The position numbers and the translations under genes are program-made. A stretch of 64,000 nt of DNA from an uncultured cyanobacterium (lineage in GTDB: Bacteria; Cyanobacteriota; Cyanobacteriia; Phormidesmidales; Phormidesmidaceae), in the NCBI GenBank assembly GCA_963793265.1, contig CAWBZI010000001.1, forward strand, positions 192,001-256,000. The letters are read 5' to 3'. Below the pieces are notes generated by a model, which was not told where the DNA came from, did no database searches, and saw only the letters and a list, made by a program, of their open reading frames with translations. Shown piece by piece: positions 18,273 to 47,307 of this stretch; position 1 is the first letter of the stretch; the number at the start of each line of letters is the position of its first letter.

Positions 18273-18588
18273 TTTCAGTTTGTCTCCTCTCAGTAAAGCT
18301 ATTTGTCCAGATCTGCGGATCGGGTTCGTATAAAGTAATGACTTTGATTGACGGCCTAGATGGATAGGAGCATTGAATATGGATAGGACGCATATCCCTT
18401 GTAAAGCCGAATACTAAGCAGCTTGGCCCATATTTGTCATTTGGGTATTTTTCGATGATCTGACCGCTAGCGATCGCCTCTTTGATCTCCTGCACTCTGA
18501 TTTTTCGGATACCTGATTGATCAATAGCATGTTTAGAAAGCTCAACTTGATTTCTTTCGACTTTTTCGCGAATTTCATCAATCATCAA
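18262..18588 (-). CDS. DUF4258 family putative toxin
   Basis: SKHAIDQS..R.I...EI, IIEKYPNDKYGPSCLVFG, RPIHIQCS, VITLYEPDP. Confidence 0.85.
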   Translation of the reverse strand: MMIDEIREKVERNQVELSKHAIDQSGIRKIRVQEIKEAIASGQIIEKYPNDKYGPSCLVFGFTRDMRPIHIQCSYPSRPSIKVITLYEPDPQIWTNSFTERRQTENGK

Positions 18589-20129
18589 CCTAGTCGCTCT
18601 ATCAAATGGTCGCCTACGCGCATAGCGTTAGCCATGATGGTGAGAGAAGGGTTAACGGCGGCGCTAGAAGGGAAGAAGCTGCCGTCTACAACATAGAGGT
18701 TGTCTATATCGTGGGTTTTGCAGTGGGTGTCTAGTACGGAGGTAGCTGGATCGGTGCCGAAGCGACAGGTGCCGACCTGATGGGCGATCGCACCAATCGG
18801 CAAAATCTTACTAAAATACCAGGACACCGGCAGCACGCTACCTTCATTGTCCACGTCCTGAACGACCTTAATCCACCGCTTAATCAGCCGCTTAAACGCC
18901 TTCATATTATTGGGCTCATACTTCAAAGTAATCTGCCCATCTTTTACCATCACCCGGTTCTCAGCATCCGGGGCATCCTCACCCGTGAGCCACCAGTCCA
19001 CCGTCCGCTTCGCCGCCACCCGCAGCGCCCAGGTCGGCGCAATCTTCGGCACATCTAGCGCCAGCATTCGATGGTTCACCTTGCCGAGTAGCTGAACGTG
19101 GCCCATCGGATAGTCAAAGCCAGGCTCGCCCCAATAGTAATCGTTAATCGCCAAAGTCTTTTGGAACACGCTGTCATTTTCTTTCAGAGAAAGTCCAACA
19201 ATCGCTGCTGCCAAATGCTTCATAAAATTGCGGCCCACCTGATCCGAACTGTTGGCAAGTCCATTCGGATGCTGTTCATTAGCAGACTTTAGTAGCAGCG
19301 CCGCAGAATTTACCGCACCACAGGCAACAACAACAATATCGCCCGAGAAAGTCTGCGTTTCGCCATTAATTTCAGCTTCTACGCCCGTAATCTCTTTCCC
19401 CGACTCGCTCGTATGCAGCTTGTTTACCTTCGCCTCAGTAATCAGCCGAACGTTGGCATTCCCCATCGTAGGCCGAATACAGTTCACATCCGCATCAGAT
19501 TTGGCATCAATAAAGCAGGGAAAGCCATCGCAGGTATTACAGCGAATGCACTCACTTAAAAAAGCATCTTTTTCATTGAGCTTCACCGACAGCGGCAGAT
19601 AAAAAGGATTAAGCCCTTTCTTTTGTAGCGCTTTATCCATCCAGGCAATTCGCGGCTCATGGCTCACAGGCGGATAGGCATAGTCAGCGCTGCGCGGCGG
19701 CTCAGTCGGGTCATCACCTTGTTTGCCGTGCACCTGATACAGTTTCTCAGCCTGTTCGTAGTAGGGCGCAAAGTCGTTATACTTCAGCGGCCAGGCGGGT
19801 GATATGCCTTCACTCAGCCTCACTTCGTCAAAGTCTTCTTCTCTTAAGCGAAACAGCGCACCGCCGTAGACTTTGGTATTGCCACCGACCCAATAGCCGA
19901 TGCCCGGATTAATATCGTTACCGTCTCTATCGGCCCACACCTCATTGGTTTGGTAGCGGCCATCTCGAAACACAGCGTCCGTGCTCCAGTTCGCTTTTTC
20001 TTTCGGTAAAAAGGAGCCGCGTTCTAGCACCAGCACTTTTTTACCGCTAGGCGCTAACCGATGGGCTAACGTACCGCCACCCGCGCCCGTGCCAATGATA
20101 ATCACGTCGTAATGTTCGGCTGCGGTCAT
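18585..20129 (-). CDS. GMC family oxidoreductase
   Basis: YDVIIIGTGAGGG, VGGNT, CIRCNTCDGFPC, HQVGTCRFG, NLYVVDGSFFPS..AVNPSLTIMANA. Confidence 0.95.
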   Translation of the reverse strand: MTAAEHYDVIIIGTGAGGGTLAHRLAPSGKKVLVLERGSFLPKEKANWSTDAVFRDGRYQTNEVWADRDGNDINPGIGYWVGGNTKVYGGALFRLREEDFDEVRLSEGISPAWPLKYNDFAPYYEQAEKLYQVHGKQGDDPTEPPRSADYAYPPVSHEPRIAWMDKALQKKGLNPFYLPLSVKLNEKDAFLSECIRCNTCDGFPCFIDAKSDADVNCIRPTMGNANVRLITEAKVNKLHTSESGKEITGVEAEINGETQTFSGDIVVVACGAVNSAALLLKSANEQHPNGLANSSDQVGRNFMKHLAAAIVGLSLKENDSVFQKTLAINDYYWGEPGFDYPMGHVQLLGKVNHRMLALDVPKIAPTWALRVAAKRTVDWWLTGEDAPDAENRVMVKDGQITLKYEPNNMKAFKRLIKRWIKVVQDVDNEGSVLPVSWYFSKILPIGAIAHQVGTCRFGTDPATSVLDTHCKTHDIDNLYVVDGSFFPSSAAVNPSLTIMANAMRVGDHLIERLG

Positions 20130-20178
20130 AGCTTTAGTCCTAGAGAGTTGAGAACGAAGTCAGCAAAAAAGGGAGTGC

Positions 20179-21045
20179 TTAGATTCTTCTTTTATACGCT
20201 TTTAGTGTCAATGGGCCGAAGGTAATAAACAGTACCAGGCTCCAGGCTAGCGTAACTAATACTAATCTCATGGCAGGCTCACCGCTCGCCAAGGCTCGCA
20301 TTGCTTCAGAGATGGTGGAAACGGGGTTGAGGGTGACAAAGCCTAAGGCCCAGTCGGGAAAGCCTTCTTTGGGGACGTAGCCGACGCTCATGAAGGTGAA
20401 GGGCAAAATCCAGGGATTCATGATGGCGGAGATGGTTTCGGATGATTTTGCACCGACGGCGATGTAGAGGGCGACTAAGGCGATCGCTAATGTAAACACA
20501 GTCGGCAGCAGGAAAAAGCCAATCGCGCCCATCAGCCCACCGTAAAAGCGAAAGCCCACTAGATAGCCTGCCAAAACAATGCCGCTAATTTGAAAGAGCA
20601 CGCGCACGGCAGCAGCTAGGAGTCTTCCGCCCACTGCGGCGAGCCGGGCAATGGGCATGGCCCGCAGGCGCACGTCTCTACCGCTGCTGAGATCGTCGTA
20701 AAAAATGCTGCCAATATTAACGGTGGTAAAAATCAGCCCTTGAATGAGTGTGAACGGCAGTAAAAACTGGGCATAGCTGCTGTAGCTTTCGCCGGGCGCA
20801 ACGACTTTGGCAAAGCTGGCGGTAAATACCAGGAATAAGGACACCGGGAAGGCGGTAGACACGAGGATTTCGGCGGGGTTGCGAAAGTCTAGCAGGAGGT
20901 TGCGCCGGGCGATGGTAAGGATGTCGTTGAGCGATCGCCCCCATCCGCCCTCACGCCGCGCGGCTACCATCGCCGCAATCGAGTCTTGGTCAAGCTTTTC
21001 TGGTGTCATGGCGTCCGAGGGCATAGCGTCTAAGGTCATATTCAA
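20179..21045 (-). CDS. ABC-2 type transporter permease (DrrB/DrrC-like)
   Basis: Six TM segments, RLRAMPIAR, FMSVGYVP..FPDW..LNPVS. Confidence 0.88.
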   Translation of the reverse strand: MNMTLDAMPSDAMTPEKLDQDSIAAMVAARREGGWGRSLNDILTIARRNLLLDFRNPAEILVSTAFPVSLFLVFTASFAKVVAPGESYSSYAQFLLPFTLIQGLIFTTVNIGSIFYDDLSSGRDVRLRAMPIARLAAVGGRLLAAAVRVLFQISGIVLAGYLVGFRFYGGLMGAIGFFLLPTVFTLAIALVALYIAVGAKSSETISAIMNPWILPFTFMSVGYVPKEGFPDWALGFVTLNPVSTISEAMRALASGEPAMRLVLVTLAWSLVLFITFGPLTLKAYKRRI

Positions 21046-21884
21046 AGCTGCTTATAAAGTCGAACCGACCAGAGCCCTAAGCCTATCCATAGCGCCACGA
21101 GCCACAGAAAGCTAGCTACAAAAAGCTCACCGCTTGCCGTACTGCCATCGACTAAAGCCCGCAACGCATCGCAGGTAACGCTCACCGGCTGATAGCGCAC
21201 AATTGGCTGTAGCCAGCTTGGAAAATTTTCGGTCGGGCTAAAGCCATTGCTGAGCAGTAGCAGCGGCGTGTAAGGAATAATGGCGACTGAATTTACCAGC
21301 GATGGATTGCGAAGCTTGAGCGCAAGGACGCTGTAGCCGGTAATGCAAGTGGTGGTAAATAGCGTGACCAGAATGAAGTAAGCCAGGAAGGCGAGCGACC
21401 CGCCGTAGAAGCGAAAGCCTAGCAGACAGGCGACTGCGAGCAAAATCACGGTCGCCAGTAATGCTCTTACCATGTAGGCCAGCACCAGCCCAGCCACCAC
21501 GGCCACGCGCGAAATTGGCATGGCCCGGCAGCGTTCCATCATGCCGGTTTCAATGTCGGTAGCGAGCATTACCGCTGAGCCAAACCCAGCGAAAAATAGC
21601 GTCTGCAAGTTGATTACGGGCACTAAATACTGGATATAGACCACGCCTTGAGCAGCCATCAGCTTTTGGCCGACGATCCAAAAGCCCAAGAGGAAAACCA
21701 TGGGGAAGATAGCGATCGCAACGATCACAATCGGGTTCCGCTTCAGCCGAATTAAATTACGCCAGGTAATCAACAGGCTGTCATCAATCGCCCTGCGCCA
21801 TCCCGTCTCCTGACGCTGAGCGATCATCTGCTGAGCTAGCTCGGCCACATCGTAAGTAGAAGGCATAGAAAATAAAAGAGCCAT
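21042..21884 (-). CDS. ABC-2 type transporter permease (DrrB-like)
   Basis: ITWRNLIRLKRNP, DIETGMMERCRAMPISR, LSNGFSP..FPSWLQPIVRYQPVS; ATGA overlap with the next permease. Confidence 0.9.
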   Translation of the reverse strand: MALLFSMPSTYDVAELAQQMIAQRQETGWRRAIDDSLLITWRNLIRLKRNPIVIVAIAIFPMVFLLGFWIVGQKLMAAQGVVYIQYLVPVINLQTLFFAGFGSAVMLATDIETGMMERCRAMPISRVAVVAGLVLAYMVRALLATVILLAVACLLGFRFYGGSLAFLAYFILVTLFTTTCITGYSVLALKLRNPSLVNSVAIIPYTPLLLLSNGFSPTENFPSWLQPIVRYQPVSVTCDALRALVDGSTASGELFVASFLWLVALWIGLGLWSVRLYKQL

Positions 21885-22130
21885 GGAAAAAATAGGCCAT
21901 CCAGAGTGTAGGCCAAAAAACTATCGAAAATCCAGGTTCGATTGAGGGGCGATCACCTGCATTCGGGCTGCGATCGCTTGCATTCGTTGTTTGAGGTTGC
22001 GGGCGGGTAAGTTAATAGCACGCTGAGCAAACAATCAATCTTGATATCGGCCATCTCGATTGATATCAGGCGCGCCGTTAAAAGTTCTCAGCATTGGGTG
22101 CTTTTTGATGGATATTTCTGGACTATAGCT

Positions 22131-23096
22131 ATGTTGAGAATTGCGATCGCAAAAACCCCTGAGCTAGTAGACGAAGTGCTCAAGCTGCGCCACCAGGTAT
22201 GGGGCGACGTGTGGGATGACGTTTGGGCCGATCAGCCCGATCAGCTTGTGCAAACCGATCCGACTCGCCTGATGGATCGGTTCGACACCTTCCCCTCCAC
22301 CACGCACATCGTTGCCATGGAGCAAACCCACCTGATCGGCAGCCTGCGCCTCACCCTCAACACATCCGCCGGAACCCCTGTCAGCGAGCTATACCATCTC
22401 AAGAGTACGCCGCCACCCGGACGCGTGCTCCTAAGCTGCGATTTACACTGCATTCACCCTTCCCATAGCGAGTCTTCAACTGCTGCTCAAACCACGTTGG
22501 GGCTAATGCTGATGGCTTGCTACGTCGGCATCAGCCAGCAGGTTACTCATATTGTCGCCTCTGTTCATCCTAAGAACGTCAGCCTGCTAGAGGGAATTGG
22601 GTTTCAGGTAATGGCCCATAAGATTACTCAAACCGCCGAAAAGCTCGATCATATTCCACTGATATTAAATATTAAAAGAGATCTTAAAGATGCATTTATG
22701 GAATTCTCTGAGCGCAACGAACTACAAGAGCTGATGCACTCGTACGGATGCGTACTCTATAGACCCGGAGAATCTATCTTGAGAGCAGGAACAACAGGCG
22801 ACTGCGCCTTTGTGATTGCCGATGGAGAAGTAGAAGTCAAGCACGCTGGCTCTCAAGCGGCAGTCGATACCATGGGCGTCGGTGAAGTGTTTGGCGAGCT
22901 AGCGCTATTAACAAATCAGGTACGCTCAGCAGACATTATCGCGAAAACTGAAGTGCGAGCAATGATCTTAGAAAAGTCTGTTTTTGTTGATCACCTCATG
23001 TCTGAGCCTAAAGTTGCGCTTAAGCTACTGACCAGCATGGGCCATCGTATGAAGCACCTGATCGATTATTGCAATACGCAAGAGATTAAAGCATAA
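22131..23096 (+). CDS. GNAT-fold acyltransferase (FeeM N-acyl amino acid synthase/LuxI-like) fused to a C-terminal cyclic-nucleotide-binding domain
   Basis: N-term RIAIAKT..VLKLRHQV..DRFD..THIVA..IGSLRLTL..GTP; C-term GDCAFVIADGEVEV..GEVFGELALL..RSADI (phosphate-binding cassette); ATG 22131 preferred to TTG 22041. Confidence 0.8.
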   Translation: MLRIAIAKTPELVDEVLKLRHQVWGDVWDDVWADQPDQLVQTDPTRLMDRFDTFPSTTHIVAMEQTHLIGSLRLTLNTSAGTPVSELYHLKSTPPPGRVLLSCDLHCIHPSHSESSTAAQTTLGLMLMACYVGISQQVTHIVASVHPKNVSLLEGIGFQVMAHKITQTAEKLDHIPLILNIKRDLKDAFMEFSERNELQELMHSYGCVLYRPGESILRAGTTGDCAFVIADGEVEVKHAGSQAAVDTMGVGEVFGELALLTNQVRSADIIAKTEVRAMILEKSVFVDHLMSEPKVALKLLTSMGHRMKHLIDYCNTQEIKA

Positions 23097-23126
23097 AGGT
23101 CGCTTGCTAATAAACACAGTCACACT

Positions 23127-26100
23127 ATGCCCAACACATATGGCCTTTCGCTGGCATTCATAACGCCTGCTTTGACCGCTACAGTAGGGCTACTGCCAGC
23201 TCAGGCAGAGTCGATCATAGCCGCGCCTGATGGCACCGGGACGGTGATTGTTCAACAGGGCACACAGTTTGATATTGAGCAGGGCAGCTTTTCAGACGAT
23301 GGCGCTAATCAGTTTCACAGCTTTGAGCTGTTTTCTTTAGAAGCCGGGGAGCTAGCAAATTTTATAGCGCCCGCTGACGTTCAGAACATTGTCGCAAAAA
23401 TTAGCGACAGTGCGCCTTCAGTGATAAACGGCCAGCTACAGGTGTCAGCAAACGGCGGCGTGCCTGATGTGTATTTACTGAATCCTGCGGGCGTGCTTTT
23501 GGGGCCTAATGTCAGTCTAAATTTGCCTGCTAGTTTAACCATATCAACGGCGGATAGCATTGGGTTTGAAAACGGTTGGTTTGGCGGGGTTGACACAGGC
23601 AATCTTGGAGATTTGAGCGGTACGCCTACAGGTGAATTTGCCTTTTTGAGTGAAGAAAATGGAGCGCGTGGGGCGATCGCTAACCAGGGCACCCTATCGC
23701 TCACACCCGGCGCGAGCCTGTCGCTAATCGGCACCTCAATTACCAACACAGGCACAATATCCACGCCAGGCGGAAATATCACCCTAGCCGCTGTACCCGA
23801 AGAAAGTGTTGTTAAGCTCAGCAGGCAAAATAGCCTGCTGTCTTTAGAGCTAAGCGTGCCAGCCGGTTCAAACAACACGCTTTCCTTACTCGAACTGCCT
23901 GAGCTGCTTACCCATAGTGAGCGATCGCACGCTACCGAACTGATTACAAATCTCGATGGCTCTGTCAGCTTAGTCAATGCGGCCGCAAACAGTGTTGTAG
24001 CATCAGGCTCGCTGTCTGTTGAGAGTGAAACAGGGGTTGGTGGCGGTGTGGTGGTGGTGGGCGATCGCATCAATCTACAATCTGCCACCCTATCCGCATC
24101 CGGGCTCACAGGCGGCGGCACCGTCCGCATCGGCGGTAACACCAGAGGTCAGCGCGGTCTACCAACAGCTTCCTACACTCGTATTGATTCAAATACTTCT
24201 ATTGCAGCCGACGCCCTTCAGAGCGGGCAGGGTGGACAGGTTTCAGTCTGGGCCGACGATACCACACAGTATCTAGGCACAACGACCGCAACTGGCGGCG
24301 AACTTGACGGAGACGGCGGGTTTGTTGAAGTATCAGGCAAAAGAAACCTTTTTTTTGACGGCGTTGTCGATACGCGTGCCCCACAGGGTCAAACCGGATC
24401 GCTACTGCTCGACCCTGAAAACATTCTCATCATCAACGGCGCTTCAGCCCCAGACGACGATCAAATCACAGATGCCACCATCCTCGCCGCAGAAGGCGAC
24501 GGCCTCTTCACCATTGCCGAACGCACCCTAGCTAAGATATCCAGCCTCACGGATGTCACGCTAGAAGCCACTAACAACATCACCGTAGGCGTACTACAAG
24601 ACCAAACGCTCACCTTCGCGCCTAGCACCATATCTGGCACGCCTATTCCAAGCGGCGCTATCACGCTTAGAGCCGATGCGGACGGCGACGGCGCAGGCGA
24701 TTTCATCATGACTGATCCTGACACCATACTGATAGCGCCAGGCCGAGACGTTTCTATCTCAGGTGCCAACTTACAGCTAGGCGATCTCAATACAGCCGCA
24801 CTGTTTCAAGCGGGCAATATCACCCTTACAGCGAGCGGTTCGGTAACCACAGGCGATATTGACGCTCATGCCCCCCAGTCCAACAGTCAGGGCGGCAACG
24901 TTAGTATCACAGCCGCCGATATTACAACACGAAACATTCTTACTGACAGTCCTGCGCAAGCAGGCAACGTCTCGCTAATCGGTCAAATCGGCAGCATCAC
25001 CACAGGCGAAATTTCAGCCGCATCGCTCAATGGCCAGAATGGATTGATAGACCTCGCCTCGCCCGGCAGTATTTCAGTCGGTGGAGAAGTGATCCAAGCA
25101 CCACAGCCGCAAACGCCACCAGAATCTACGCCAGGAACACCACCAGATTTGTCACCAGAAGTACCAGCGACGCCAGCAATACCAGAAGTACCAGGCGAAA
25201 CGATAGGCGAAGCTGCCCTTGGTAATGCTGGGCTGACGGTTGGTTCACGTCAAACACTAGGTAGCTCAAACTCGGCTGGAGCAAGCGGCGGCGGTAGTGG
25301 GTTTGCTGGGCTAGGTGGCTTAGTCGGCGGCGGTGATGACGATGCTTCAGGGAGTAAAGGCGGTGGGAGCGTGGTGCTAAGTGAAGCGGAGGCTAATGAG
25401 GCGATCGCACAAATTGAAGGCGATCGCACCCAAACCTTCTCTAACTACTTTGGCCGCACCCTCGAATCCACTGAAAGGAACCTGGCCGATATTAAACAGC
25501 TCCTTACAGATGTAGAAGCCGAGAGTGGCAACCAATCAGCGTTTGTCTACGTAAAAGCGCCTGCTGCACGTCCAGACGGCACCGAAAGCCCCCTAGAGCT
25601 GATGCTAATAACCGCTCGCAGTGCGCCCGTGAAAATAACAATTCCCGAAGTCAAAAGCGCTGAACTGCTCAAAACAGTCTCAACCTTCCGCGACGACATG
25701 CTCACCTCTGTAAGGAGAGGCGGCACCCCTTATCTCACCTCAGCCCAACAGCTCCATCAGTGGCTCATCGACCCGATTGAAGCGGCCCTGCAAAACGAAC
25801 CGGGCGTTGATACGCTGGCATTCGCCATGGACGCTGGGTTGAGAACAATTCCGATCGCTGCGCTGCATGACGGAGAACAGTTTTTAGTTGAAAAATACAG
25901 CGTTGGCGTGTTGCCCTCACTGGGCTTAGTCGATCCGCACTACGCTTCCTTGCAGAACGCCCAGGTCATCGCCATGGGTGCCAGTGAGTTTGCCCGGCAA
26001 GATCCTCTACCGGCTGTGCCGCTCGAACTAAATCGCATCGATCAGCTTTGGCCCAGCGCTACGTTCTTAAACGAAAAATTCACCCGACAAAATCTCATCC

Positions 26101-26663
26101 AGCAGCGCGCCCAAACGCCCTACAACATTATTCACTTAGCCACACATGCCGACTTCAACCCAGGCAGCATCGACAATTCCTACGTTCAGCTTTGGGACGA
26201 AAAGCTCCCGCTCAGCGAACTAAAGCAGCTCGGGTGGAACTCTCCAGCCGTAGATTTACTTGTCCTTTCGGCCTGTAGTACGGCAGTGGGTAGCCCAGAA
26301 GCTGAACTCGGTTTTGCCGGGCTTGCCTTGGCCTCGGGCGTACGATCTGCTGTTGCGAGCCTGTGGTCGGTAGACGATGCCGGGACGCTGGCGCTGATGA
26401 GTGAGTTTTACCGGCAGCTAGCAATTATGCCGACGAAAGTAGAGGCATTGAGGGCTGCTCAGCTAGCCCTGCTGAACGGTCAGATGAACGGCCATCTTGA
26501 TAGAGAAGAAGATCCTGCAAGCGGACAACTACTGAATGGAGATATAGACGGAGGCAGTGAAAACGCACTTACGCACTCATTTGAGGCGGGTACTTTAAAA
26601 GACACAGACTTCTCTCATCCTTACTACTGGTCGGGCTTCACGATGATCGGGAGTCCGTGGTAA
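23127..26663 (+). CDS. Filamentous haemagglutinin (TPS)-domain exoprotein with C-terminal CHAT caspase-like protease domain
   Basis: Signal peptide (LPAQA), NQFHSFELF, VYLLNPAGVLLG; GGFVEVSG/GSLLLDP repeats; CHAT IHLATHA (His) and LVLSAC (Cys), ASLWSVDD, HPYYWSGFTMIGSPW. Confidence 0.92.
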   Translation: MPNTYGLSLAFITPALTATVGLLPAQAESIIAAPDGTGTVIVQQGTQFDIEQGSFSDDGANQFHSFELFSLEAGELANFIAPADVQNIVAKISDSAPSVINGQLQVSANGGVPDVYLLNPAGVLLGPNVSLNLPASLTISTADSIGFENGWFGGVDTGNLGDLSGTPTGEFAFLSEENGARGAIANQGTLSLTPGASLSLIGTSITNTGTISTPGGNITLAAVPEESVVKLSRQNSLLSLELSVPAGSNNTLSLLELPELLTHSERSHATELITNLDGSVSLVNAAANSVVASGSLSVESETGVGGGVVVVGDRINLQSATLSASGLTGGGTVRIGGNTRGQRGLPTASYTRIDSNTSIAADALQSGQGGQVSVWADDTTQYLGTTTATGGELDGDGGFVEVSGKRNLFFDGVVDTRAPQGQTGSLLLDPENILIINGASAPDDDQITDATILAAEGDGLFTIAERTLAKISSLTDVTLEATNNITVGVLQDQTLTFAPSTISGTPIPSGAITLRADADGDGAGDFIMTDPDTILIAPGRDVSISGANLQLGDLNTAALFQAGNITLTASGSVTTGDIDAHAPQSNSQGGNVSITAADITTRNILTDSPAQAGNVSLIGQIGSITTGEISAASLNGQNGLIDLASPGSISVGGEVIQAPQPQTPPESTPGTPPDLSPEVPATPAIPEVPGETIGEAALGNAGLTVGSRQTLGSSNSAGASGGGSGFAGLGGLVGGGDDDASGSKGGGSVVLSEAEANEAIAQIEGDRTQTFSNYFGRTLESTERNLADIKQLLTDVEAESGNQSAFVYVKAPAARPDGTESPLELMLITARSAPVKITIPEVKSAELLKTVSTFRDDMLTSVRRGGTPYLTSAQQLHQWLIDPIEAALQNEPGVDTLAFAMDAGLRTIPIAALHDGEQFLVEKYSVGVLPSLGLVDPHYASLQNAQVIAMGASEFARQDPLPAVPLELNRIDQLWPSATFLNEKFTRQNLIQQRAQTPYNIIHLATHADFNPGSIDNSYVQLWDEKLPLSELKQLGWNSPAVDLLVLSACSTAVGSPEAELGFAGLALASGVRSAVASLWSVDDAGTLALMSEFYRQLAIMPTKVEALRAAQLALLNGQMNGHLDREEDPASGQLLNGDIDGGSENALTHSFEAGTLKDTDFSHPYYWSGFTMIGSPW

Positions 26664-26722
26664 TTGAGGGCATGAGAGGGATTCAATGATTTTAGAGTCC
26701 TGTTTTAAGAGGCAACGCACCC

Positions 26723-27448
26723 GTGATAAACCTTAAGTTACCGCTGTTGATAACGGCTACTTTGCTACTGAGCACTTTGCCTGGCTATAGTCTAGAGTTT
26801 CCAAGAACTAGCGATCGCGGTGCTCCTTCTCGGACAGCCAGCGGCGGCACTCGGGGCGATCGCTGTCAGCTCCCTGCTAACAAACGCATCAGCGCCCTAG
26901 TACCCCGAAATAACATCAGCACGTTCACTAGCACCCAGGCCAGCCTTTGGCTACGCATTCCTACAGAACTCAGCCAAAAAAGAGCTGAAATCTTCGTTCA
27001 AAATCCTGAAACTTTCGAGATTGTCTACCAGCAGCAGTTTCTCTTATCAGACCTTGAAACTGGCATTTCAAAGATAGATCTACCGACTACGAATAACGAA
27101 GGAACCGCGCTATTAGCTATTGGGCAAGACTATTTTTGGGAGTTTGCAGTCATCTGCGACGCCTCCGATCGCACTAGAGATCATATTGCTCAAGGATTTG
27201 TACATAAACTCGAAACAACAGAAGCTTTTGAAGAAAAGCTTGAAACCCTTACACCCAGTCAGCAGGCCGAGCAGTACGCTGAAGCTGAAATCTGGCAAGA
27301 GACTTTAGAGTTAGCCTTGCAAACAAGAGCTGGTGACCCAACAGCATGGGCGCAGCTACTTGATTCTGTAGGACTCAACTTTTTGGCTGATGAACCCGAG
27401 GCTAACGACATCCTTTTAGACTGCTGTCAGCCTAGCGAGCCCAGCTAA
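26723..27448 (+). CDS. DUF928 family exported protein
   Basis: Signal peptide; GAPSRTASGGTRG..C, ALVP, YFWEFAVICD..DR, YAEAEIWQETL, WAQLLDSVGL; GTG start. Confidence 0.88.
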   Translation: MINLKLPLLITATLLLSTLPGYSLEFPRTSDRGAPSRTASGGTRGDRCQLPANKRISALVPRNNISTFTSTQASLWLRIPTELSQKRAEIFVQNPETFEIVYQQQFLLSDLETGISKIDLPTTNNEGTALLAIGQDYFWEFAVICDASDRTRDHIAQGFVHKLETTEAFEEKLETLTPSQQAEQYAEAEIWQETLELALQTRAGDPTAWAQLLDSVGLNFLADEPEANDILLDCCQPSEPS

Positions 27449-27454
27449 AAGATT

Positions 27455-29668
27455 ATGAAAAGCTGGCGGCATCGATTATGGCAACAGCGGCACATTTTAA
27501 CCATTGCGCCAAGTGTTGCTGGTGTCGTCATATTACTCAGGCTAGCGGGGCTACTACAGGCGTGGGAGTGGGCCGCTTACGATCAGTACACGCGGCTGCG
27601 CCCTGCAATGCCAGTAGATGAGCGCGTTGTGATTGTCGGCATCACTGAAGCCGACGTGAGTGAGATTGGGCAGGCCATTATTCCTGATGGTGTGTATGCC
27701 AAGGTGATTGAAAAACTGCGATCGCAATCTCCCCGAGCCATCGGCCTAGACATCTATCGCGATCTTCCTGTAGAGCCGGGTCACGACAGGCTGGTGAAAG
27801 TATTTGAAACCACGCCCAACCTCATCGGCATTCAAAAAGTTGTTGGCAACGCAGATCGCCAGACCGTATCACCGCCGCCCGCACTTGCCGCACGAGGTCA
27901 AGTGGGCGCAAACGACCTGATTATTGATGCAGACAACACGCTGCGCCGAGGGCTGCTCTCTACCCAAACCGCCGAAGGCACGACAGCCTACAGCCTCAGT
28001 TTGTACCTATCTCTACTGTACTTAGAGGCCGAGGGCATCGGCCCCGAAATGGTTGATGACGATGTTTGGTGGCTGGGCAAAACCCTATTCAAACCATTTG
28101 AAGCCAATGACGGCGGCTACATTCGAGCCGATGCTAGCGGCTACCAGCACTTAATCAACTATAGAGGCGGCGATCGCGCCTTTACCCAAGTCTCCCTGCT
28201 AGACGTATTACACAACCGCATTCCTTCAGACTGGGCCACCGACCGCATCGTCTTAATCGGCGCAGTTGGCGATAGCTTTCAAGATACCGTTTATACGCCC
28301 TACAGCAGCACGCTGCGCTCTATTCCTGAGCCGATGTCAGGCGTAGAAGTTCACGCTAGTGTCACCAGTCAGCTTGTCAGCGCCGCACTAGACGGGCAGG
28401 TGCAGATGCGTAGCTGGCATGAAATTGGTGAGTGGCTTTGGATTTTAGGATGGTCGGGCGTGGGGGCTGGGTTTGTTTGGCAGAGTAGGCAAGCCGGAGG
28501 GCGTTGGAGAAAAGGAGGATTGGGGGTCGCAGCTTTAGGTGTCTTACTAGGTGGCACCTACGCACTCTTCCGCTTTGGCTGGTGGGTGCCTGTCATCCCG
28601 GCTGTGCTCGCTGTCGGTGGATCAGCCATTGCCACAACCGCATACATTGCTCGCAGCGCTCATGACATTCGCCGCACGTTTGGCCGCTACCTCAGCGATG
28701 AAATTGTCACCACGCTTTTAGAAAATCCTGAAGGCCAAAAGCTCGGGGGCGAACGCCGGGAGATTACCATTCTCACCTCCGATCTTAGAGGATTCACCTC
28801 TGCGGCTGAAAGGCTCGCCCCCGAAGTTGTTGTTAAAGTGCTGAACTTTTATTTAGGCGAAATGGCAAAAGTGATCGTGCGTCACAAGGGCACGATTGAT
28901 GAGTATATGGGAGATGGCATTTTGGTGCTATTTGGGGCACCGATTCAGAGAGAAGACGATGCGAAAAGAGCGATCGCCTGCGCTGTAGAAATGCAGCTCA
29001 CGATGGAAGCTGTCAACAAAACTATGAAAAGCTGGAACCTATCTTCTTTGGATATGGGCATTGGCGTTCATACCGGCGAAGTGGTTGTGGGCAACATTGG
29101 CTCCGAGCAGCGGTCAAAATATGGTGTCGTCGGCAGCCCGGTCAATTTGACCTACCGTATAGAATCTGTAACTGTGGGCGGTCAGATATTAATTTCAGAC
29201 GAAACTCTTCAGGCCGCAGGTACAGGTGTACAGACTATCAATCAACAAACGATTATGCCAAAAGGCATTGTCAGACCTGTTGTAGTGCATGAAGTAACAG
29301 GCGTTAGTGAACCCTATCACTTACAGCTAACGAAAGCGACAGAGACTTTTTCGCCACTAGCAGAGCCTCTACTCATTTGCCTACGGCACATCAAAAACAA
29401 GCAGGTCGGCACTGATTCTTTTATCGGTCAAATCGTTGCGCTCTCCGAAAAAGGCGCTTTATTCAAAACAGAAGAATCGGCAGTTCGCACTATCGAAACA
29501 TTGAGCAACTTGAAGATTAATTTTCTGTCACTGGGCTCAGTTACAGCGAGCCAGGACGCCTATGCCAAGGTAATTTCAAAAGATGAGCGCCAGTGCCAGC
29601 TACATATTCATTTTACGGCGCTGCCTGAGGCGATAGCGAGGCAGTTAGAGAAAGCAGTCCGAGCGTAG
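27455..29668 (+). CDS. cya2: CHASE2-domain class III nucleotide cyclase, Cya2-like (probable guanylyl cyclase)
   Basis: TM-CHASE2-3TM, then ILTSDLRGFT, IDEYMGDG (Glu at the substrate position), KYGVVG..VNLTYRIES; as recalled, closely matches Synechocystis Cya2; PilZ-like tail (ALSEKG). Confidence 0.85.
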   Translation: MKSWRHRLWQQRHILTIAPSVAGVVILLRLAGLLQAWEWAAYDQYTRLRPAMPVDERVVIVGITEADVSEIGQAIIPDGVYAKVIEKLRSQSPRAIGLDIYRDLPVEPGHDRLVKVFETTPNLIGIQKVVGNADRQTVSPPPALAARGQVGANDLIIDADNTLRRGLLSTQTAEGTTAYSLSLYLSLLYLEAEGIGPEMVDDDVWWLGKTLFKPFEANDGGYIRADASGYQHLINYRGGDRAFTQVSLLDVLHNRIPSDWATDRIVLIGAVGDSFQDTVYTPYSSTLRSIPEPMSGVEVHASVTSQLVSAALDGQVQMRSWHEIGEWLWILGWSGVGAGFVWQSRQAGGRWRKGGLGVAALGVLLGGTYALFRFGWWVPVIPAVLAVGGSAIATTAYIARSAHDIRRTFGRYLSDEIVTTLLENPEGQKLGGERREITILTSDLRGFTSAAERLAPEVVVKVLNFYLGEMAKVIVRHKGTIDEYMGDGILVLFGAPIQREDDAKRAIACAVEMQLTMEAVNKTMKSWNLSSLDMGIGVHTGEVVVGNIGSEQRSKYGVVGSPVNLTYRIESVTVGGQILISDETLQAAGTGVQTINQQTIMPKGIVRPVVVHEVTGVSEPYHLQLTKATETFSPLAEPLLICLRHIKNKQVGTDSFIGQIVALSEKGALFKTEESAVRTIETLSNLKINFLSLGSVTASQDAYAKVISKDERQCQLHIHFTALPEAIARQLEKAVRA

Positions 29669-29697
29669 GTCTTTAAACAGTGGCAAACAGCAAATTT

Positions 29698-29713
29698 TGT
29701 ATACGATGTCACA
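29698..29713. promoter_or_regulatory. Possible CRP-family site (TGTAT-N6-TCACA)
   Basis: TGTATACGATGTCACA inside a TTTTGT...ACAAAA palindrome; 8 of 10 positions match TGTGA-N6-TCACA. Confidence 0.35.
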
Positions 29714-29747
29714 AAAGCCTCACATGCACACTCAATTATTATGTTTT

Positions 29748-29761
29748 GTAGCTTGCAATAC
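29748..29761. promoter_or_regulatory. Possible NtcA site (GTA-N8-TAC)
   Basis: GTAGCTTGCAATAC, about 100 nt upstream of the ATG at 29861; no ideal -10 at 22 nt. Confidence 0.35.
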
Positions 29762-29860
29762 GGTTTGTAAGCTTGTACAACTTTAGATAGATATTTTATA
29801 AAGCAGCTAAAAAGAAAAATCGCACAAGTACCGCAGCGGACTACCTACCGGGAATTCAAT

Positions 29861-30553
29861 ATGGCCTCTCTCAACCAAGCCTCACGCCCTAACGCTCAAG
29901 CTAGAGATCAGTTCAATGACCTGCACGCTCAGCACACTATCGACAGTGGTGATTTGCTCGTCATTTGTAGCTTAGCCAACGTAGACAATATTTTTGAGCG
30001 CGTAGAGTCTTGGAGCTTCGAGCAGTTTTTTGGATTTGCAGCCTATCTGTTTATCACCACCGACTCGGCGGAGACTCGCCAGCAGCTTGCTCAGATCATG
30101 CCAAAATTTGGTAGCAGAGCGGTGCTATCACTGGTCAAAATTTTGCACCATGCTCAGCTATCAAATGACAATAAGAGCCTGTCGCTAAAAGCGCTAGCAA
30201 CGCAAAGCTTGGGTGCAATGAATCCCTACACCTTTGCGATTGGCCTAACAGAAGTGTTAGCTCAAGATAATGCGGCAGAACTAGGATCTGTTGCAGCTAA
30301 GGCACTGGTAAAAATTAGCTACGAAAGCAGCGACTCTATTCTTTTACTATTGCCTCAACTGCTGCCCGCGAAGTCCTGGCAACTGCTCAAGGCTAAACTT
30401 GTTAGCGAACCTTCTTTTACCAGCATTAAAAAGAGTATTAAAGAAGACACCGAAGCTCAGAAAATGGCGGTCAAAGCGTTGAACAAAATCAACGTCAGCG
30501 CTGATGAGCTGTCCTTTATTGAGAGTCCTCGACCTGTGTCGTATGGCCAGTAA
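29861..30553 (+). CDS. Hypothetical helical (HEAT-repeat-like) protein
   Basis: 230-aa ORF; QLAQIMPKFGSRAVLSLVKIL, AAKALVKI resemble HEAT/PBS-lyase repeats; 3' end overlaps the convergent ATPase by 38 nt. Confidence 0.6.
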   Translation: MASLNQASRPNAQARDQFNDLHAQHTIDSGDLLVICSLANVDNIFERVESWSFEQFFGFAAYLFITTDSAETRQQLAQIMPKFGSRAVLSLVKILHHAQLSNDNKSLSLKALATQSLGAMNPYTFAIGLTEVLAQDNAAELGSVAAKALVKISYESSDSILLLLPQLLPAKSWQLLKAKLVSEPSFTSIKKSIKEDTEAQKMAVKALNKINVSADELSFIESPRPVSYGQ

Positions 30554-31541
30554 GGGCAAAAAACACGTCATCTAAGCTAGGGCGGCGGAGTGAAATATCG
30601 GCTAGCGGAATGTTTGCAGACTCCAGGCGTAGCACTATTTCTGTGAGTGTTTTTGCACCGTCAGGCGCAGCGATCGCAATTGCTTTCCCCTTACCGGCTT
30701 CATCACCCGCCCCACTCACGGTCATATCTCCCATATCAGCCAGCAAGCGCTGCACGCGCGGAATATCTTCTGGATTAGCCAGCCGTAGCTCACAAAATTT
30801 ACCGCCTACTTTGTCTTTAAGTTCGTCAACGGTGCCCTCTGCAATCACCTGCCCTTGATCGATCACAACAATCTGATCGGCTAGCGCATCGGCCTCTTCT
30901 AGATATTGAGTGGTCAAAATGATGGTAATGCCCTGCGCCTTTAAGTCTTGAACAACGGCCCAAAGCTGCTGCCGACTGCGAGGATCGAGGCCGGTAGTGG
31001 GTTCATCTAAAAATAGAACTAAAGGCAGTACAACAATACTCGCGGCCAAATCTAACCGCCGTCGCATACCGCCCGAAAAGGTTTTGACCTGTCGGTTAGC
31101 TGCCTCTGTTAAGTCGAACTGGGCCAGCAGTTCTTGTGCTCTTTTTTTCGCGGCTGCACCTGAAAGCCGCAGCAGCCGGGCAAATAAAATCAGGTTTTCG
31201 CGTGCGGTGAGGGCTTCATCAACGGCGGCAAACTGGCCCGTTAGGCCAATGAGCGATCGCACCGCCTCTGGCTGTGTCACCACATCGTAGCCCGCGATTG
31301 TCGCCGTGCCGCTATCTGGCGTCAGCAGCGTCGTCAGGCAGTTGATTGCCGTCGTTTTTCCGGCTCCGTTAGGCCCCAGTACGCCCAGCACCGTTCCGCT
31401 TGCCGCCGACAGGTTAATCCCACGCAACACTGGCGTATCCCCAAAGCGCTTCGTTAGATTCTTCACCTCTACAATCATCTCTGCCACTAGAGCCACAGAA
31501 TACCTTTCCTTAGGCGATACGCTAAACCAATAACCTAGCAT
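30516..31541 (-). CDS. ABC transporter ATP-binding protein, DrrA-like
   Basis: Walker A GPNGAGKTT, GLTGQFAAVDEALTARENL, FSGGMRRRLDLA, LFLDEPTTGLDP, LTTQYLEEAD, RRPSLDDVFFALTG; likely start 31478. Confidence 0.95.
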   Translation of the reverse strand: MLGYWFSVSPKERYSVALVAEMIVEVKNLTKRFGDTPVLRGINLSAASGTVLGVLGPNGAGKTTAINCLTTLLTPDSGTATIAGYDVVTQPEAVRSLIGLTGQFAAVDEALTARENLILFARLLRLSGAAAKKRAQELLAQFDLTEAANRQVKTFSGGMRRRLDLAASIVVLPLVLFLDEPTTGLDPRSRQQLWAVVQDLKAQGITIILTTQYLEEADALADQIVVIDQGQVIAEGTVDELKDKVGGKFCELRLANPEDIPRVQRLLADMGDMTVSGAGDEAGKGKAIAIAAPDGAKTLTEIVLRLESANIPLADISLRRPSLDDVFFALTGHTTQVEDSQ

Positions 31542-43238: not shown

Positions 43239-44102
43239 TTACCACTGGTAGCCTAGCTTGTTCAGCGCAGTCTCTAAATGAGGGCGAATTTGTGCCATCG
43301 TTTCAGCGTCAAGTACATCCGTCCAAACTCTCTGCCGACTTGGATCGGCGCTGCTGGTTACAAAGTCAATTAGCGGCTGGCTAGCTGGCAGCTCTGCAAA
43401 CGCTGTAATTGCTGACATCGTTGTTTCAGGCTGCGCAATCAAATCTTCATAGCGAAAACGATAGTAGTGCGAAGCGGGCAATTTGCTCCCATCTTCTACC
43501 GCCTGCGTCGCTGTCGCGGCCCATTGCTTTGCCAATATAACAGGCTGCGGATGGTTGCCTACCCAGTCTTGCCAGCCTGCCGGACGCGGCCCCCAAAAGG
43601 GAATGGGCTTACCGGCTAGCTTACTTAGCAAAGTCTCTTGAATTCTAGGCCAGTGAGCAGGCCACTCAGCTATTGGCGTTTCAACAAGCATTTCACTAAA
43701 GCGACTCTTCAGCTTATCAGGCCGGTAAAATCCAGTTTCTAGCATGTCGCTTGCTGAGCTAAATACAGAGCGTCCGTCGCGAATCACGTGAATAATTTTG
43801 GCGTCAGGAAATACCTTATGAATAAACGGCAGGCGCAGGCAGTTACTCGGCGTTTTCTCAAACAAACGCGCTTTTCCCTCTGCGGCTACAAACTGCTGAA
43901 ACCGGCTGCGAATATGCTCGACAACCTTCGGCTGAGCATCTTCAGAGGTAAGCACATCATCTTTTCGATAGTTGTTGCCCCACGACCATACGTAGCGCGG
44001 CTCCATCCAGCAGGCCAAATCAGGGTGCCGAGAAAATACGCGGGTTAGCCATGAGGTACCTGAGCGATGGGTACCGACTAATATAATAGGAGAGTTGATC
44101 AT
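43239..44102 (-). CDS. Sulfotransferase
   Basis: 5'-PSB VGTHRSGTS, EKTP, 3'-PB IRDGRSVFSS, RYEDL. Confidence 0.92.
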   Translation of the reverse strand: MINSPIILVGTHRSGTSWLTRVFSRHPDLACWMEPRYVWSWGNNYRKDDVLTSEDAQPKVVEHIRSRFQQFVAAEGKARLFEKTPSNCLRLPFIHKVFPDAKIIHVIRDGRSVFSSASDMLETGFYRPDKLKSRFSEMLVETPIAEWPAHWPRIQETLLSKLAGKPIPFWGPRPAGWQDWVGNHPQPVILAKQWAATATQAVEDGSKLPASHYYRFRYEDLIAQPETTMSAITAFAELPASQPLIDFVTSSADPSRQRVWTDVLDAETMAQIRPHLETALNKLGYQW

Positions 44103-45340: not shown

Positions 45341-45371
45341 AGAAAAAACGGCATCCCTAATTGATAAAATC

Positions 45372-46400: not shown

Positions 46401-46509
46401 AAAACTGTCTCGAAGAAAACTGTTGTAGATGCTTTGACAGAGGTCTTTACAAGAAAGCACCTCCCTTTAAAGAGGTTTTTCTTGATTTATAGTCGATAGT
46501 GCCCATCAG

Positions 46510-47307
46510 CTAGGCAGTTTTCGCTATGTCTACCCAGCTATGATCCAATTCGTATTCCAGCTTGATGAGAGCCTCTCCTGCATACTTATCAAATACCTGG
46601 CAGGCTTCAGACGAAAACTGATTTCGCCAGTCTCCAACAATGCCTTTTCTCAAAAAGCTGTTCTTATTTTCTTCACCCGGCTTGCGCCCCGCCTGCTTAG
46701 CAAACGAAAATTCTTCTACAATTTCAGCAGCGCTATCAGCTGTAATATTTTCTCCTGTTAGCTCATGCACAATCCGCTGTAGCTCAGCCGGGCCGTTGGT
46801 TCTAAGATCTTCGTATCGAACGTAGGTCACGTCATCGCGGCCATACCATTTGCTGACGAACTGCGGCCAAGAAAAGCTCATGGGCCGATACTGTGTAAAA
46901 CACTGTTCTATAAAAGCAGGGAGGTTGCTGCGCACGTCATGGTAATCGTCGAACTGAAGGCGCGATCGCAGCTCATTTACAATCGGCGCATTCCGCCCGC
47001 TCTCATTCACAAACAGCGTGTGGTGATACCAGGACACCATCATGTCTCGCCCGTCTCGCCAAACGATCAGCGCATTTTCCATGCCCCAGGGCCGCAGGTA
47101 GTGACCGTGCATCATACTGGTCGATAGCGTTGGAAACTGGTTTCTAGGAAAAGGCAGTCCGGTCGCTCTACTCACCATTTGCCCTACCCAAGTTCCGCCC
47201 GATTTGGGATACTCATTGACGATGTAAAGGGGTGAGATGGGCGTGAGGCCGTGCACCATGGCGTATCTTACAGCCGCTTGGAATTTGACAGCGATCGCAT
47301 TAGACAT
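46510..47307 (-). CDS. Sulfotransferase (SULT-like domain)
   Basis: YPKSGGTW, RDGRDMMVSWY, RYEDL, FLRKGIVGDWRN. Confidence 0.92.
   Translation of the reverse strand: MSNAIAVKFQAAVRYAMVHGLTPISPLYIVNEYPKSGGTWVGQMVSRATGLPFPRNQFPTLSTSMMHGHYLRPWGMENALIVWRDGRDMMVSWYHHTLFVNESGRNAPIVNELRSRLQFDDYHDVRSNLPAFIEQCFTQYRPMSFSWPQFVSKWYGRDDVTYVRYEDLRTNGPAELQRIVHELTGENITADSAAEIVEEFSFAKQAGRKPGEENKNSFLRKGIVGDWRNQFSSEACQVFDKYAGEALIKLEYELDHSWVDIAKTA

Follow-up and report, generated by a model that had tools for sequence, protein, structure and literature searches.

According to two reviews, PMC10117731 and PMC4284465, bacteria and cyanobacteria have few known cGMP targets: in the parts drawn on here, the cyanobacterial components named are a cGMP synthase, Cya2, reported as a guanylate cyclase, and a phosphodiesterase, and no receptor appears. 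The first-pass annotation of the present DNA, which knew of no established cGMP effector enzyme in cyanobacteria, agrees with those accounts. Cya2 of Synechocystis sp. PCC 6803 (sll0646), in which a CHASE2 domain is combined with a class III catalytic domain, is given no cGMP effector in the same parts of these reviews. An enzyme target is described in Xanthomonas campestris in the portion of PMC3770947 considered here, where XC_0249, encoded beside the class III guanylate cyclase XC_0250, combines a cNMP domain with a GGDEF output, which is a diguanylate cyclase, and is activated by cGMP. Another precedent is the mycobacterial Pat (MsPat, MSMEG_5458; MtPat, Rv0998), a protein with a cNMP-binding domain and a GNAT-superfamily acyltransferase that is activated by cAMP through relief of autoinhibition, as set out in the excerpted text of PMC8556138. 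Both the mycobacterial Pat and the Xanthomonas pair had been overlooked in the first-pass annotation.

The locus described here lies in a window of 64,000 nt (contig CAWBZI010000001.1 of assembly GCA_963793265.1, positions 192,001 to 256,000, forward strand), within which a block of four co-oriented genes is found; coordinates below are those of the window and residues those of the encoded protein.

22131 (ATG) to 23096, + strand: gene 1, encoding F, a FeeM-like acyltransferase with a cNMP-binding domain (Pfam matches to FeeM and cNMP_binding); alternative start at 22041 (TTG)
F residues about 1 to 190, + strand: N-terminal domain, FeeM/LuxI-fold acyltransferase (Pfam FeeM; structural match to 2g0b)
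F residues about 195 to 321, + strand: C-terminal cNMP-binding domain (PF00027, 62.9 bits)
23127 to 26663, + strand: gene 2, TPS-CHAT, a predicted exported TpsA-like protein (Pfam TPS and CHAT)
26723 to 27448, + strand: gene 3, DUF928 protein (Pfam DUF928)
27455 to 29668, + strand: gene 4, CHASE2 class III cyclase of Cya2 type (Pfam CHASE2 and Guanylate_cyc; match to 2w01)

Gaps of 30, 59 and 6 nt separate the genes in the order F, TPS-CHAT, DUF928, cyclase. An ORF check reproduced the four + strand genes and gaps of the first-pass annotation, and Pfam searches returned its domain calls for all four. The start of F is likely the ATG at 22131, since the identical protein P0005 (321 aa, 100% identity) and the MLKIAIAK of relatives begin there. 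A promoter and terminator scan of the block gave scores no better than those of shuffled sequences and is thus uninformative on co-transcription.

As in the XC_0250/XC_0249 pair, a class III cyclase gene is here accompanied by the gene of a cNMP-domain enzyme. The output differs, being a predicted FeeM/LuxI-fold acyltransferase in F instead of GGDEF, the cNMP domain of F is C-terminal, unlike that of XC_0249, and the cyclase of the block carries a CHASE2 sensor and is accompanied by DUF928 and CHAT genes; cGMP binding raises XC_0249 activity (same portion of PMC3770947), whereas for F such gating is a prediction. Pat has the cNMP domain N-terminal and a lysine-acetyltransferase GNAT domain C-terminal, while in F this order is reversed and the catalytic half is of FeeM/LuxI type. 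With respect to Cya2 as covered by the two reviews, the difference is that the block includes a cNMP-domain enzyme gene.

Judged by its sequence, the fourth gene is as close to Synechocystis Cya2 as an orthologue would be. It matches Guanylate_cyc (PF00211, 85.7 bits with the cut-off at 21.9) and, over residues 22-338, CHASE2 (PF05226, 221 bits), which is flanked on both sides by hydrophobic stretches in the translation and is predicted to be a periplasmic sensor between membrane segments. Residues 428-626 (199 residues) match the Cya2 catalytic domain (PDB 2w01) with E 3e-78, and in the alignment each column of the motifs IDEYMGD and KYGVVG corresponds to one of IDEFMGD and KYGVVG in 2w01, so that E483 and G557 occupy the columns of its Glu and Gly; the Cya2-like cyclase with a Glu/Gly signature proposed in the first-pass annotation is recovered in this alignment. 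We take these columns to be the substrate-specifying positions, which hold Lys and Thr/Asp in adenylate cyclases. In 6fht, an engineered adenylate-cyclase version, the first of them holds Lys where gene 4 has Glu. The metal-binding residues D443 and D487 and the transition-state residues N564 and R568 are intact, as in Cya2 (2w01), and invariant in all 22 aligned relatives. Among the seven cyclase domains of the genome the Glu/Gly pair is found in gene 4 only, the remaining six having Lys with Thr, Ser or Asp (adenylate-type). A preference for GTP, with cGMP as product, is most likely on these sequence features.

The N-terminal domain of F matches FeeM (PF21926) with 48.6 bits, the cut-off being 27, and AF2 gave a confident two-domain model (pLDDT 87.3, pTM 0.86). 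The three best structural matches of residues 1-193 have Z 17.7, 16.9 and 16.2, the first being FeeM (2g0b; Z 17.7, rmsd 3.5, 178 of 188 residues aligned) and the second LasI (Z 16.9), and the closest folds overall are small-molecule enzymes, namely FeeM, LasI, TofI and RpaI (Z 14.8-17.7). FeeM/LasI-type enzymes share with F the FeeM fold and, in the N-terminal half, the Arg/Asp cluster, but they are only 10-15% identical in sequence and have no cNMP domain. All 35 F-family sequences have the LuxI-type cluster itself (R20, R46, D52 and R73) unchanged.

When the profile of the N-terminal domain was compared with solved sequences, the only significant matches were BjaI (E 1.6e-5) and RpaI (E 2.9e-4), both of them acyl-homoserine-lactone (AHL) synthases. 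Together with LasI and TofI near the top of the structural matches, and a weak Autoind_synth (PF00765) match that becomes stronger in relatives, this would fit a cGMP-gated AHL synthase of LuxI type, by which envelope sensing is turned into a quorum-signal output. We consider such a role very unlikely, given that Autoind_synth reaches 16.3 bits in F, under its cut-off of 24, that FeeM outscores the LuxI type in both sequence and structure, and that conservation is lacking at the F positions aligned with the LuxI-type E-x-S-R strand; in the profile alignment it is lacking, too, at those equivalent to LuxI E101 and R104. The sub-threshold Autoind_synth score, set against a profile that nevertheless reaches BjaI, places the relation of F to LuxI at the superfamily level.

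The wider family of F bears on the nature of its product. It comprises 330 representative clusters at E <= 1e-10, most of them non-cyanobacterial and from several phyla, and a cNMP domain is present in 89 of the best 150 clusters. One relative, P0243, is fused to a cytochrome P450, and in four of four non-cyanobacterial loci the partner gene encodes an LCM methyltransferase (carboxyl-methyltransferase family), with no cyclase nearby. The fusion and the pairing suggest a lipid-like small-molecule product. Acylation of a protein, for example of TPS-CHAT or DUF928 before export, or a non-catalytic role of the FeeM-like domain as a ligand-binding module, would be compatible with the modest FeeM score (the cyanobacterial members P0027 and P0028 fall below Pfam detection), with the absence of the E101/R104 equivalents, with constant neighbours of the F gene that are exported proteins, and with the precedent of Pat, the sole characterised cNMP-GNAT fusion and a protein acetyltransferase according to the excerpted text of PMC8556138. 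We find this quite improbable, since the nearest folds are small-molecule enzymes, the profile matches are AHL synthases, the Arg/Asp cluster is conserved in F, and the P450 fusion and methyltransferase pairing of its relatives point the same way. F is best described as a cytoplasmic candidate for a cyclic-nucleotide-gated N-acyltransferase, and it looks functional from its FeeM fold, invariant Arg/Asp cluster, intact cNMP cassette and confident model. Its product would most likely be an N-acyl amine, and among these an N-acyl amino acid.

The C-terminal domain of F exceeds the cNMP_binding cut-off of 27.5 bits (62.9 bits), CNB domains match it structurally with Z 14-16, and all 35 F-family members keep the residues G255, E256 and R265 of its phosphate-binding cassette. 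The R-S-A cassette is identical in cyanobacterial F and in those relatives from other phyla whose genes stand without a cyclase nearby; the same cassette is found in bacterial domains that prefer cAMP and is not diagnostic of the ligand; cAMP or dual specificity of F is thus possible. Identity of F with full-length Pat (NCBIfam NF058543, cut-off 460) was rejected, since F scores 46.8 bits and its match is limited to residues 224-341 (the cNMP part). The nucleotide bound by F likely differs from that of Pat. All 20 cyanobacterial rows, and 2 of the 15 others, have Asp or Glu at position 312, which belongs to the C-terminal helix of the cNMP domain, and it is on the equivalent helix that N145 and E146 of XC_0249 read the guanine, as described in that portion of PMC3770947. 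This clade-specific acidic residue and the linkage of the genes are hints of a cGMP preference.

In regard to that linkage, F is rare in cyanobacteria: within the order it was found in 11 of 173 genomes, and these 11 belong to one genus. Of the 46 genomes of this genus, 13 carry the Cya2-type cyclase, that is, 11 of 11 with F as compared with 2 of 35 without it, and none of the 46 carries F without the cyclase; in G523 and G527, whose completeness is 92% and 94%, the cyclase is present and F was not detected. At 10 of 12 distinct loci F lies inside a cyclase/DUF928/CHAT block, the genes being arranged in four or more different orders, with 43-66% identity between the F lineages, and all linked cyclases checked have Glu/Gly (11/11, as 5/5 and 6/6). 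The linkage is broken in two cases: in G521 (L195) F stands amid housekeeping genes with the cyclase block on a separate contig, and in G524 F (L192) is found with CHAT genes and the cyclase and DUF928 are on a separate contig (L199). The linkage in other genomes that the first-pass annotation had asked for is seen at most loci, with L192 and L195 as exceptions, and every F-bearing genome has the cyclase. The block itself has been inserted into an ABC operon, between its ATPase and permease genes, which are contiguous in genomes without it, the neighbouring permease being found in 41 of 46 genomes of the genus. All linked loci come from one genus and are thus kin, and the block may have been inherited as one island.

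This history gives some weight to the idea that F answers to cAMP, or to cyclic nucleotides without selectivity, that the cyclase is its neighbour by virtue of a shared island, and that the true readers of the cyclase are elsewhere. The broad, mostly non-cyanobacterial family with its four cyclase-free loci, the common cassette, the two unlinked loci and the six Lys-type (adenylate-type) cyclase domains of the genome are all consistent with it. Even so, we regard it as unlikely, because the cyclase follows F so closely across the genus, because the linkage outlasts several rearrangements and the divergence between F lineages, and because the acidic residue on the lid helix of F is specific to the cyanobacterial clade. 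In addition, other cNMP-domain genes adjoin Cya2-type cyclases at other loci: MscS-cNMP genes lie directly downstream of them at 3 of 20 sampled loci, and a cNMP-AAA+-Fer4_5 gene adjoins the cyclase in L196 and L199. That different cNMP genes take this place supports the adjoining cNMP protein, here F, as the probable reader of a Cya2-type cyclase.

The two genes between F and the cyclase encode putative exported proteins. Gene 2 has a signal-peptide-like N-terminus in translation, a TPS domain (PF05860, 93 bits, residues 36-241) with a filamentous haemagglutinin N-terminal match in NCBIfam (TIGR01901, 51.5 bits against a cut-off of 29.1), and a CHAT domain of the caspase-fold protease type (224.7 bits, residues 872-1176), an architecture repeated in related blocks. 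Its motifs HLATHADF and LSACSTA hold a His and a Cys that may form the CHAT His/Cys dyad. No ShlB-family ORF that could represent a ShlB/FhaC-type TpsB was found within the window, two ShlB homologues being on other contigs of the genome; with no TpsB gene in the window and no phosphodiesterase gene seen, the system is not self-contained as had been proposed. Gene 3 matches DUF928 with 133.2 bits against a cut-off of 26 (E 1e-38) and also has a signal-peptide-like start.

DUF928 adjoins the Cya2-type cyclase at 16 of 20 sampled loci, and CHAT/TPS appears at 4 of the 20, the latter counted with narrow HMMs of our own making; CHAT/TPS is the looser companion of the cyclase. Frequent clustering of CHAT, DUF928 and CHASE2 genes, as claimed in the first-pass annotation, thus holds for DUF928 and much less for CHAT; nor could it be called established in print within the literature searched, where no paper joining 'CHASE2', 'DUF928' and 'CHAT' was found. 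Three co-folding runs of DUF928 with CHASE2 gave ipSAE values of 0.62, 0.62 and 0.61 (0.00 for the best of three controls), with at least 75% of contacts in common and a partner pLDDT of at least 78; of 157 solved complexes 116 attain the pass mark of this procedure, as do 2 of 215 mismatched pairs, counts that apply approximately here because our own alignments were used. The interface is formed by DUF928 residues 24-46, an N-terminal peptide, and the contact residues are invariant columns in both DUF928 and CHASE2. DUF928 is thereby predicted to be a periplasmic partner that touches CHASE2.

Taken together, we give slightly better than even chances to the block being an outside-in cyclic-nucleotide pathway in which F is gated by the nucleotide from the cyclase. 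The conserved N-terminal peptide of DUF928 would dock in a conserved face of CHASE2, a change of state in this periplasmic domain would lead the gene 4 cyclase to make cGMP, and the exported TPS-CHAT protease would be a looser accessory, possibly acting on the input arm. In the output, which is the new part, the cyclic nucleotide would bind the C-terminal domain of F and gate the acyltransferase allosterically, as is proposed by analogy with the cAMP-activated mycobacterial Pat and the cGMP-activated XC_0249; we infer that the ligand would be cGMP and that it would switch the activity on rather than off. An envelope signal would then lead the cell to make an N-acyl amine, with an N-acyl amino acid as the likeliest product. 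A fuller chain can be drawn, in which the exported CHAT protease acts on periplasmic DUF928, the DUF928 peptide serves as a tethered ligand of CHASE2 and thereby sets the activity of the cyclase, cGMP directly activates the FeeM-type synthase, and an N-acyl amino acid, or an acyl amide related to it, is made as signal or lipid; this chain as a whole is unlikely.

If it is true, the block would amount to a complete bacterial cGMP pathway not described before, and F would be the first cGMP effector identified in cyanobacteria and, in any organism, the first synthase of a lipid or signal to be gated by cGMP. The block offers a specific candidate for a cGMP receptor-enzyme in cyanobacteria, and the MscS-cNMP channels and the cNMP-AAA+ protein beside Cya2-type cyclases are two further candidate receptor types. 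The DUF928-peptide/CHASE2 co-fold gives an idea of what CHASE2 domains may sense. Beyond the cyanobacteria, cNMP-linked FeeM-like enzymes are now defined as a broad and as yet uncharacterised family across several phyla and, since some of its members are paired with a carboxyl-methyltransferase-family gene, nucleotide-gated synthesis of metabolites of the acyl-amino-acid type may be common.

The four co-oriented genes that the first-pass annotation had proposed as a cGMP signalling system are supported both by the ORF coordinates, which confirm the gaps of 30, 59 and 6 nt, and by Pfam, which agrees with every domain named in each gene:

22131-23096 (+), gene 1, encoding F: FeeM (48.6 bits, cut-off 27) and cNMP_binding (62.9 bits)
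23127-26663 (+), gene 2: TPS and CHAT
26723-27448 (+), gene 3: DUF928
27455-29668 (+), gene 4: CHASE2 and Guanylate_cyc

The longest frame of gene 1 opens with a TTG at 22041; the ATG at 22131, from which the product begins MLKIAIAK, is where the database entry (P0005, 321 aa) starts, as do all close relatives. What NCBIfam contributes is limited to a filamentous-haemagglutinin N-terminal domain for gene 2 and, for gene 1, a partial match to mycobacterial Pat that covers the cNMP half. A 230-aa ORF at 29861-30553 was rejected as a fifth conserved gene, being without a Pfam family and unlike the ORF at the same position in the related locus L045. The promoter and terminator scan of 21500-30700 was uninformative (6 promoter-like sites versus 7.8 expected from shuffles, and 10 terminator-like sites versus 9.1).

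The AlphaFold model of F (35-sequence alignment; pLDDT 87.3, pTM 0.86) agrees with the suggested fusion of a FeeM/LuxI-like acyltransferase to a cNMP domain. In this model, residues 1-193 best match the structure of FeeM (2g0b; Z 17.7, rmsd 3.5, 178 aligned), followed by the AHL synthases LasI (Z 16.9) and TofI (Z 16.2), and residues ~187-320 resemble numerous cyclic-nucleotide-binding domains (Z 14-16), a result with which Foldseek concurs. Against solved sequences, the N-domain profile retrieved the acyl-HSL synthases BjaI (E 1.6e-5) and RpaI; an N-terminal Arg/Asp cluster is common to all three proteins, and conservation does not extend to the LuxI-type E-x-S-R strand. The residues R20, R46, D52 and R73, as well as G255, E256 and R265 of the cNMP cassette, are invariant in 35/35 F-family sequences. 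F is predicted to be cytoplasmic because its translation contains no signal peptide or membrane segment. In a Rosetta-stone search for cyclase fusions, no protein of 563-2000 aa scored for the FeeM half, which is weak evidence.

Residues 428-626 of gene 4 align with the crystal sequence of Synechocystis Cya2 (2w01) at E 3e-78, and the Cya2-like signature noted on first pass, Glu in IDEYMGD (E483) and Gly in KYGVVG (G557), is matched in this alignment, where Cya2 reads IDEFMGD and an identical KYGVVG. The engineered phytochrome-Cya2 adenylate cyclase 6fht has Lys where Cya2 has Glu. All 22 aligned relatives retain the metal-binding Asp residues and the Asn/Arg pair. Seven class III cyclase domains were found in the host genome (G000), and Glu/Gly occurs in gene 4 only, the other six having Lys with Thr, Ser or Asp. 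A second cyclase/cNMP pair is present within G000 (L007, contig C5: 9494-12988), where a channel gene of MscS-like type, also encoding a cNMP domain, comes after a cyclase gene; the translation of this cyclase shows substitutions at Asp positions that are presumably metal-binding. Cya2-like catalytic domains are present in 69 of the 401 genomes of the phylum sample (E <= 1e-40), and 20 such loci, chosen by high identity from other cyanobacterial families, all have Glu/Gly. On its sequence, the gene 4 cyclase can be assigned to a known kind, that of Cya2, which, according to two reviews, adds to cGMP and not to cAMP levels and has a higher turnover of GTP than of ATP (PMC4284465, PMC10117731). 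CHASE2 is unmentioned in a Sinorhizobium paper (PMC7529298), which hence offers no tie between CyaK and CHASE2.

The linkage between the fusion and a Glu-type CHASE2 cyclase, anticipated on first pass, holds in other genomes. Among 12 distinct cyanobacterial F loci (the window, L001, L002, L044, which is identical to L188, L045 and L189-L195), ten have F together with a Glu/Gly CHASE2 cyclase, DUF928 and TPS/CHAT genes in a single block. The gene order varies: F comes first, as in the window, in L191 and L194, lies 3' of the cyclase in L002, L044, L045, L189 and L190, is flanked by two TPS-CHAT genes in L193 and is duplicated together with DUF928 in L001. F identity across lineages is only 43-66%, and the association with the cyclase has therefore outlasted much divergence. 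The two exceptions are L195 (genome G521), where F lies amid riboflavin synthase, ferrochelatase and other housekeeping genes with the cyclase block on a separate contig, and genome G524, where F is found with CHAT genes (L192), DUF928 and the cyclase being on another contig (L199). Of 173 genomes of the order, 11 gave a hit for the FeeM half of F, and all of these belong to a single genus (11/46); across the 401-genome phylum sample, it was detected only in G000 and G052 (a contig-end fragment), the remaining 55 matches covering the cNMP half only. Within the genus, 13 of 46 genomes have the Cya2-type cyclase, and every one of the 11 that bear F is among them, a co-occurrence that is not a statistical test since these genomes are kin. 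Two of the F loci also contain, a few kb away from the F-containing block, a CHAT-CHASE2 fusion of ~830-866 aa with its own DUF928-like neighbour (L191:2046-4643, minus strand; L192:9854-12346, plus strand).

In the window, the block is nested between genes of an ABC-2 exporter:

20179-21884 (-), two permeases, on one side of the block; then a GMC oxidoreductase, together spanning 18585-21884 (-)
30516-31541 (-), ATPase, on the other side

This nesting is repeated in L001, L045, L190, L193 and L194; in L044/L188 and L189 the transporter genes flank just one side. Four of the six module-lacking genomes fetched (L200-L202, L204) have an uninterrupted run of the ATPase and the two permease genes, and the block is therefore read as having been inserted into a housekeeping operon; in the other two, L203 has a 1.4-kb gap in the operon and L205 lacks an ATPase gene next to the permeases. 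The insertion site is shared by several genomes of the genus, and TPS-CHAT genes also adjoin the ABC-2 operon in L206 and L207. Given this contiguity without the module and a permease in 41 of the 46 genomes of the genus, the ABC-2/GMC flanks were rejected as part of the system, a functional tie being possible; GMC is nearby in 4/6 module-lacking genomes. Elsewhere in the window, the stretch 3884-7000 (plus strand) contains a second CHASE2 protein (732 aa), in this case a fusion with a Ser/Thr protein kinase at the N-terminus; a SIMPL/DUF541 gene and a DUF2062 gene lie ahead of it. A long polysaccharide cluster (43239-60412, minus strand) includes glycosyltransferases and four genes of the sulfotransferase family, along with a pyruvyl transferase and a flippase-like gene; two RTX-repeat/lamin-tail-domain proteins come next (54911-57777).

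At the 20 sampled Cya2-like loci, the clustering of CHAT, DUF928 and CHASE2 genes, which the first-pass annotation had taken as established in cyanobacteria, stood for DUF928, the immediate neighbour of the cyclase in 16/20, and less so for TPS or CHAT, found within ~10 kb in 4/20 by custom HMMs built from 4-5 sequences and less sensitive than Pfam. As for its being established, we found no publication joining CHASE2, DUF928 and CHAT, and only an unrelated mention of DUF928, most subscription journals lying outside the search. In 3/20 loci a cNMP-domain gene lies directly downstream of the Glu/Gly cyclase, and all are of the MscS type with a C-terminal cNMP domain, making them candidate cGMP-gated channels:

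L167:11016-12473, MscS-cNMP gene
L171:11561-13024, MscS-cNMP gene
L172:5518-8438, two MscS-cNMP genes in tandem

Two genomes of the genus, of which one is without F, have next to the Cya2-type cyclase a gene whose product (~870 aa) combines a cNMP domain at its N-terminus with a sigma-54-type AAA+ module and a Fer4_5 domain (L196:4834-7458, minus strand; L199:6711-9308, plus strand), possibly a third type of reader. The three architectures are unrelated, having in common only the cNMP domain and adjacency to a Glu/Gly cyclase, as would be expected if they were the receptors of the cyclase.

In regards to nucleotide specificity, the phosphate-binding cassette FGELALL...RSA is the same in the cyanobacterial and non-cyanobacterial F groups, and the R-S-A cassette occurs in cAMP-preferring bacterial domains too. 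An acidic residue (Asp or Glu) occupies position 312, which lies in the cNMP domain's C-terminal helix, in 20/20 cyanobacterial and 2/15 other rows. Guanine is reported to be read in Xanthomonas XC_0249 by N145 and E146 of the C-terminal cNMP helix (PMC3770947). Position 312 would lie near these residues, because the structural alignment of F with 5h5o ends at model residue 314 and chain residue 147; as a guanine reader, this acidic residue is a lead only.

On the input side, residues 36-326 of CHASE2 (22-row alignment) and mature DUF928 (residues 24-241; 23-row alignment) were co-folded, giving ipSAE values of 0.62, 0.62 and 0.61, against 0.00 for the best of three controls. The pass mark is reached by 116/157 solved complexes and 2/215 mismatched pairs, rates that apply only approximately here because our own alignments were used. 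The runs had at least 75% of contacts in common, with partner pLDDT of at least 78. The DUF928 side of the interface consists only of the N-terminal segment, residues 24-46 (window 26792-26860), including the family-invariant F26, P27 and R44, and the CHASE2 side (window 27560-28432) includes the invariant D99, Y101, R102, K128, G131, N153 and D154. The predicted complex supports binding of DUF928 to CHASE2, the N-terminal peptide looking like a peptide-in-groove ligand. Any action of the CHAT protease on DUF928 is purely conjectural. The window yielded no TpsB gene, and two ShlB homologues are located elsewhere in G000.

A search with the FeeM half yields 1192 representative relatives at E <= 1e-3, a number that falls to 330 at E <= 1e-10. 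Among the 150 best, a custom HMM detects a cNMP domain in 89, and 49 have a length below 250 aa. The ESM Atlas holds several FeeM+cNMP clusters of 60-84 members each, most commonly from Pseudomonadota, Cyanobacteriota and Actinomycetota. With this distribution across phyla, the fusion is therefore old and widespread, and the cyanobacterial F clade was captured by, or itself captured, a Cya2-type module. In all four non-cyanobacterial loci, an LCM-family (PF04072) carboxyl methyltransferase gene ends 8-13 nt before the F-family gene, and no cyclase was found near it:

L047:9081-10927, LCM and FeeM-cNMP pair
L048:9104-10933, LCM and FeeM-cNMP pair
L049:9111-10927, LCM and FeeM-cNMP pair
L050:3432-5247, LCM and FeeM-cNMP pair

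This arrangement is suggestive of a two-gene unit that would make a methylated acyl-amine. Single representatives have FeeM-cNMP fused to a cytochrome P450 (P0243, 720 aa) or to HisKA-HATPase (P0135, 533 aa), and the LCM and P450 partners point to a lipid-like small-molecule product. An LCM partner was also sought in the host and rejected, PF04072 not being found in G000 (98.97% complete).

The logic of the module has been proven elsewhere for a cyclase with an adjacent cNMP-domain enzyme in Xanthomonas XC_0250/XC_0249 (PMC3770947) and for the cNMP-gated GNAT Pat of mycobacteria (PMC8556138). In contrast to both, the output here is a FeeM/LuxI-fold acyltransferase, and this is the new element; our search for N-acyl amino acid synthases with cyclic nucleotides found no publication on a FeeM-cNMP-type fusion, again with most subscription journals outside it. 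What is said here of the ligand, regulation and product of F is inference. With no cGMP receptor of cyanobacteria named in passages of two reviews (PMC4284465, PMC10117731), F is a candidate for such a receptor.
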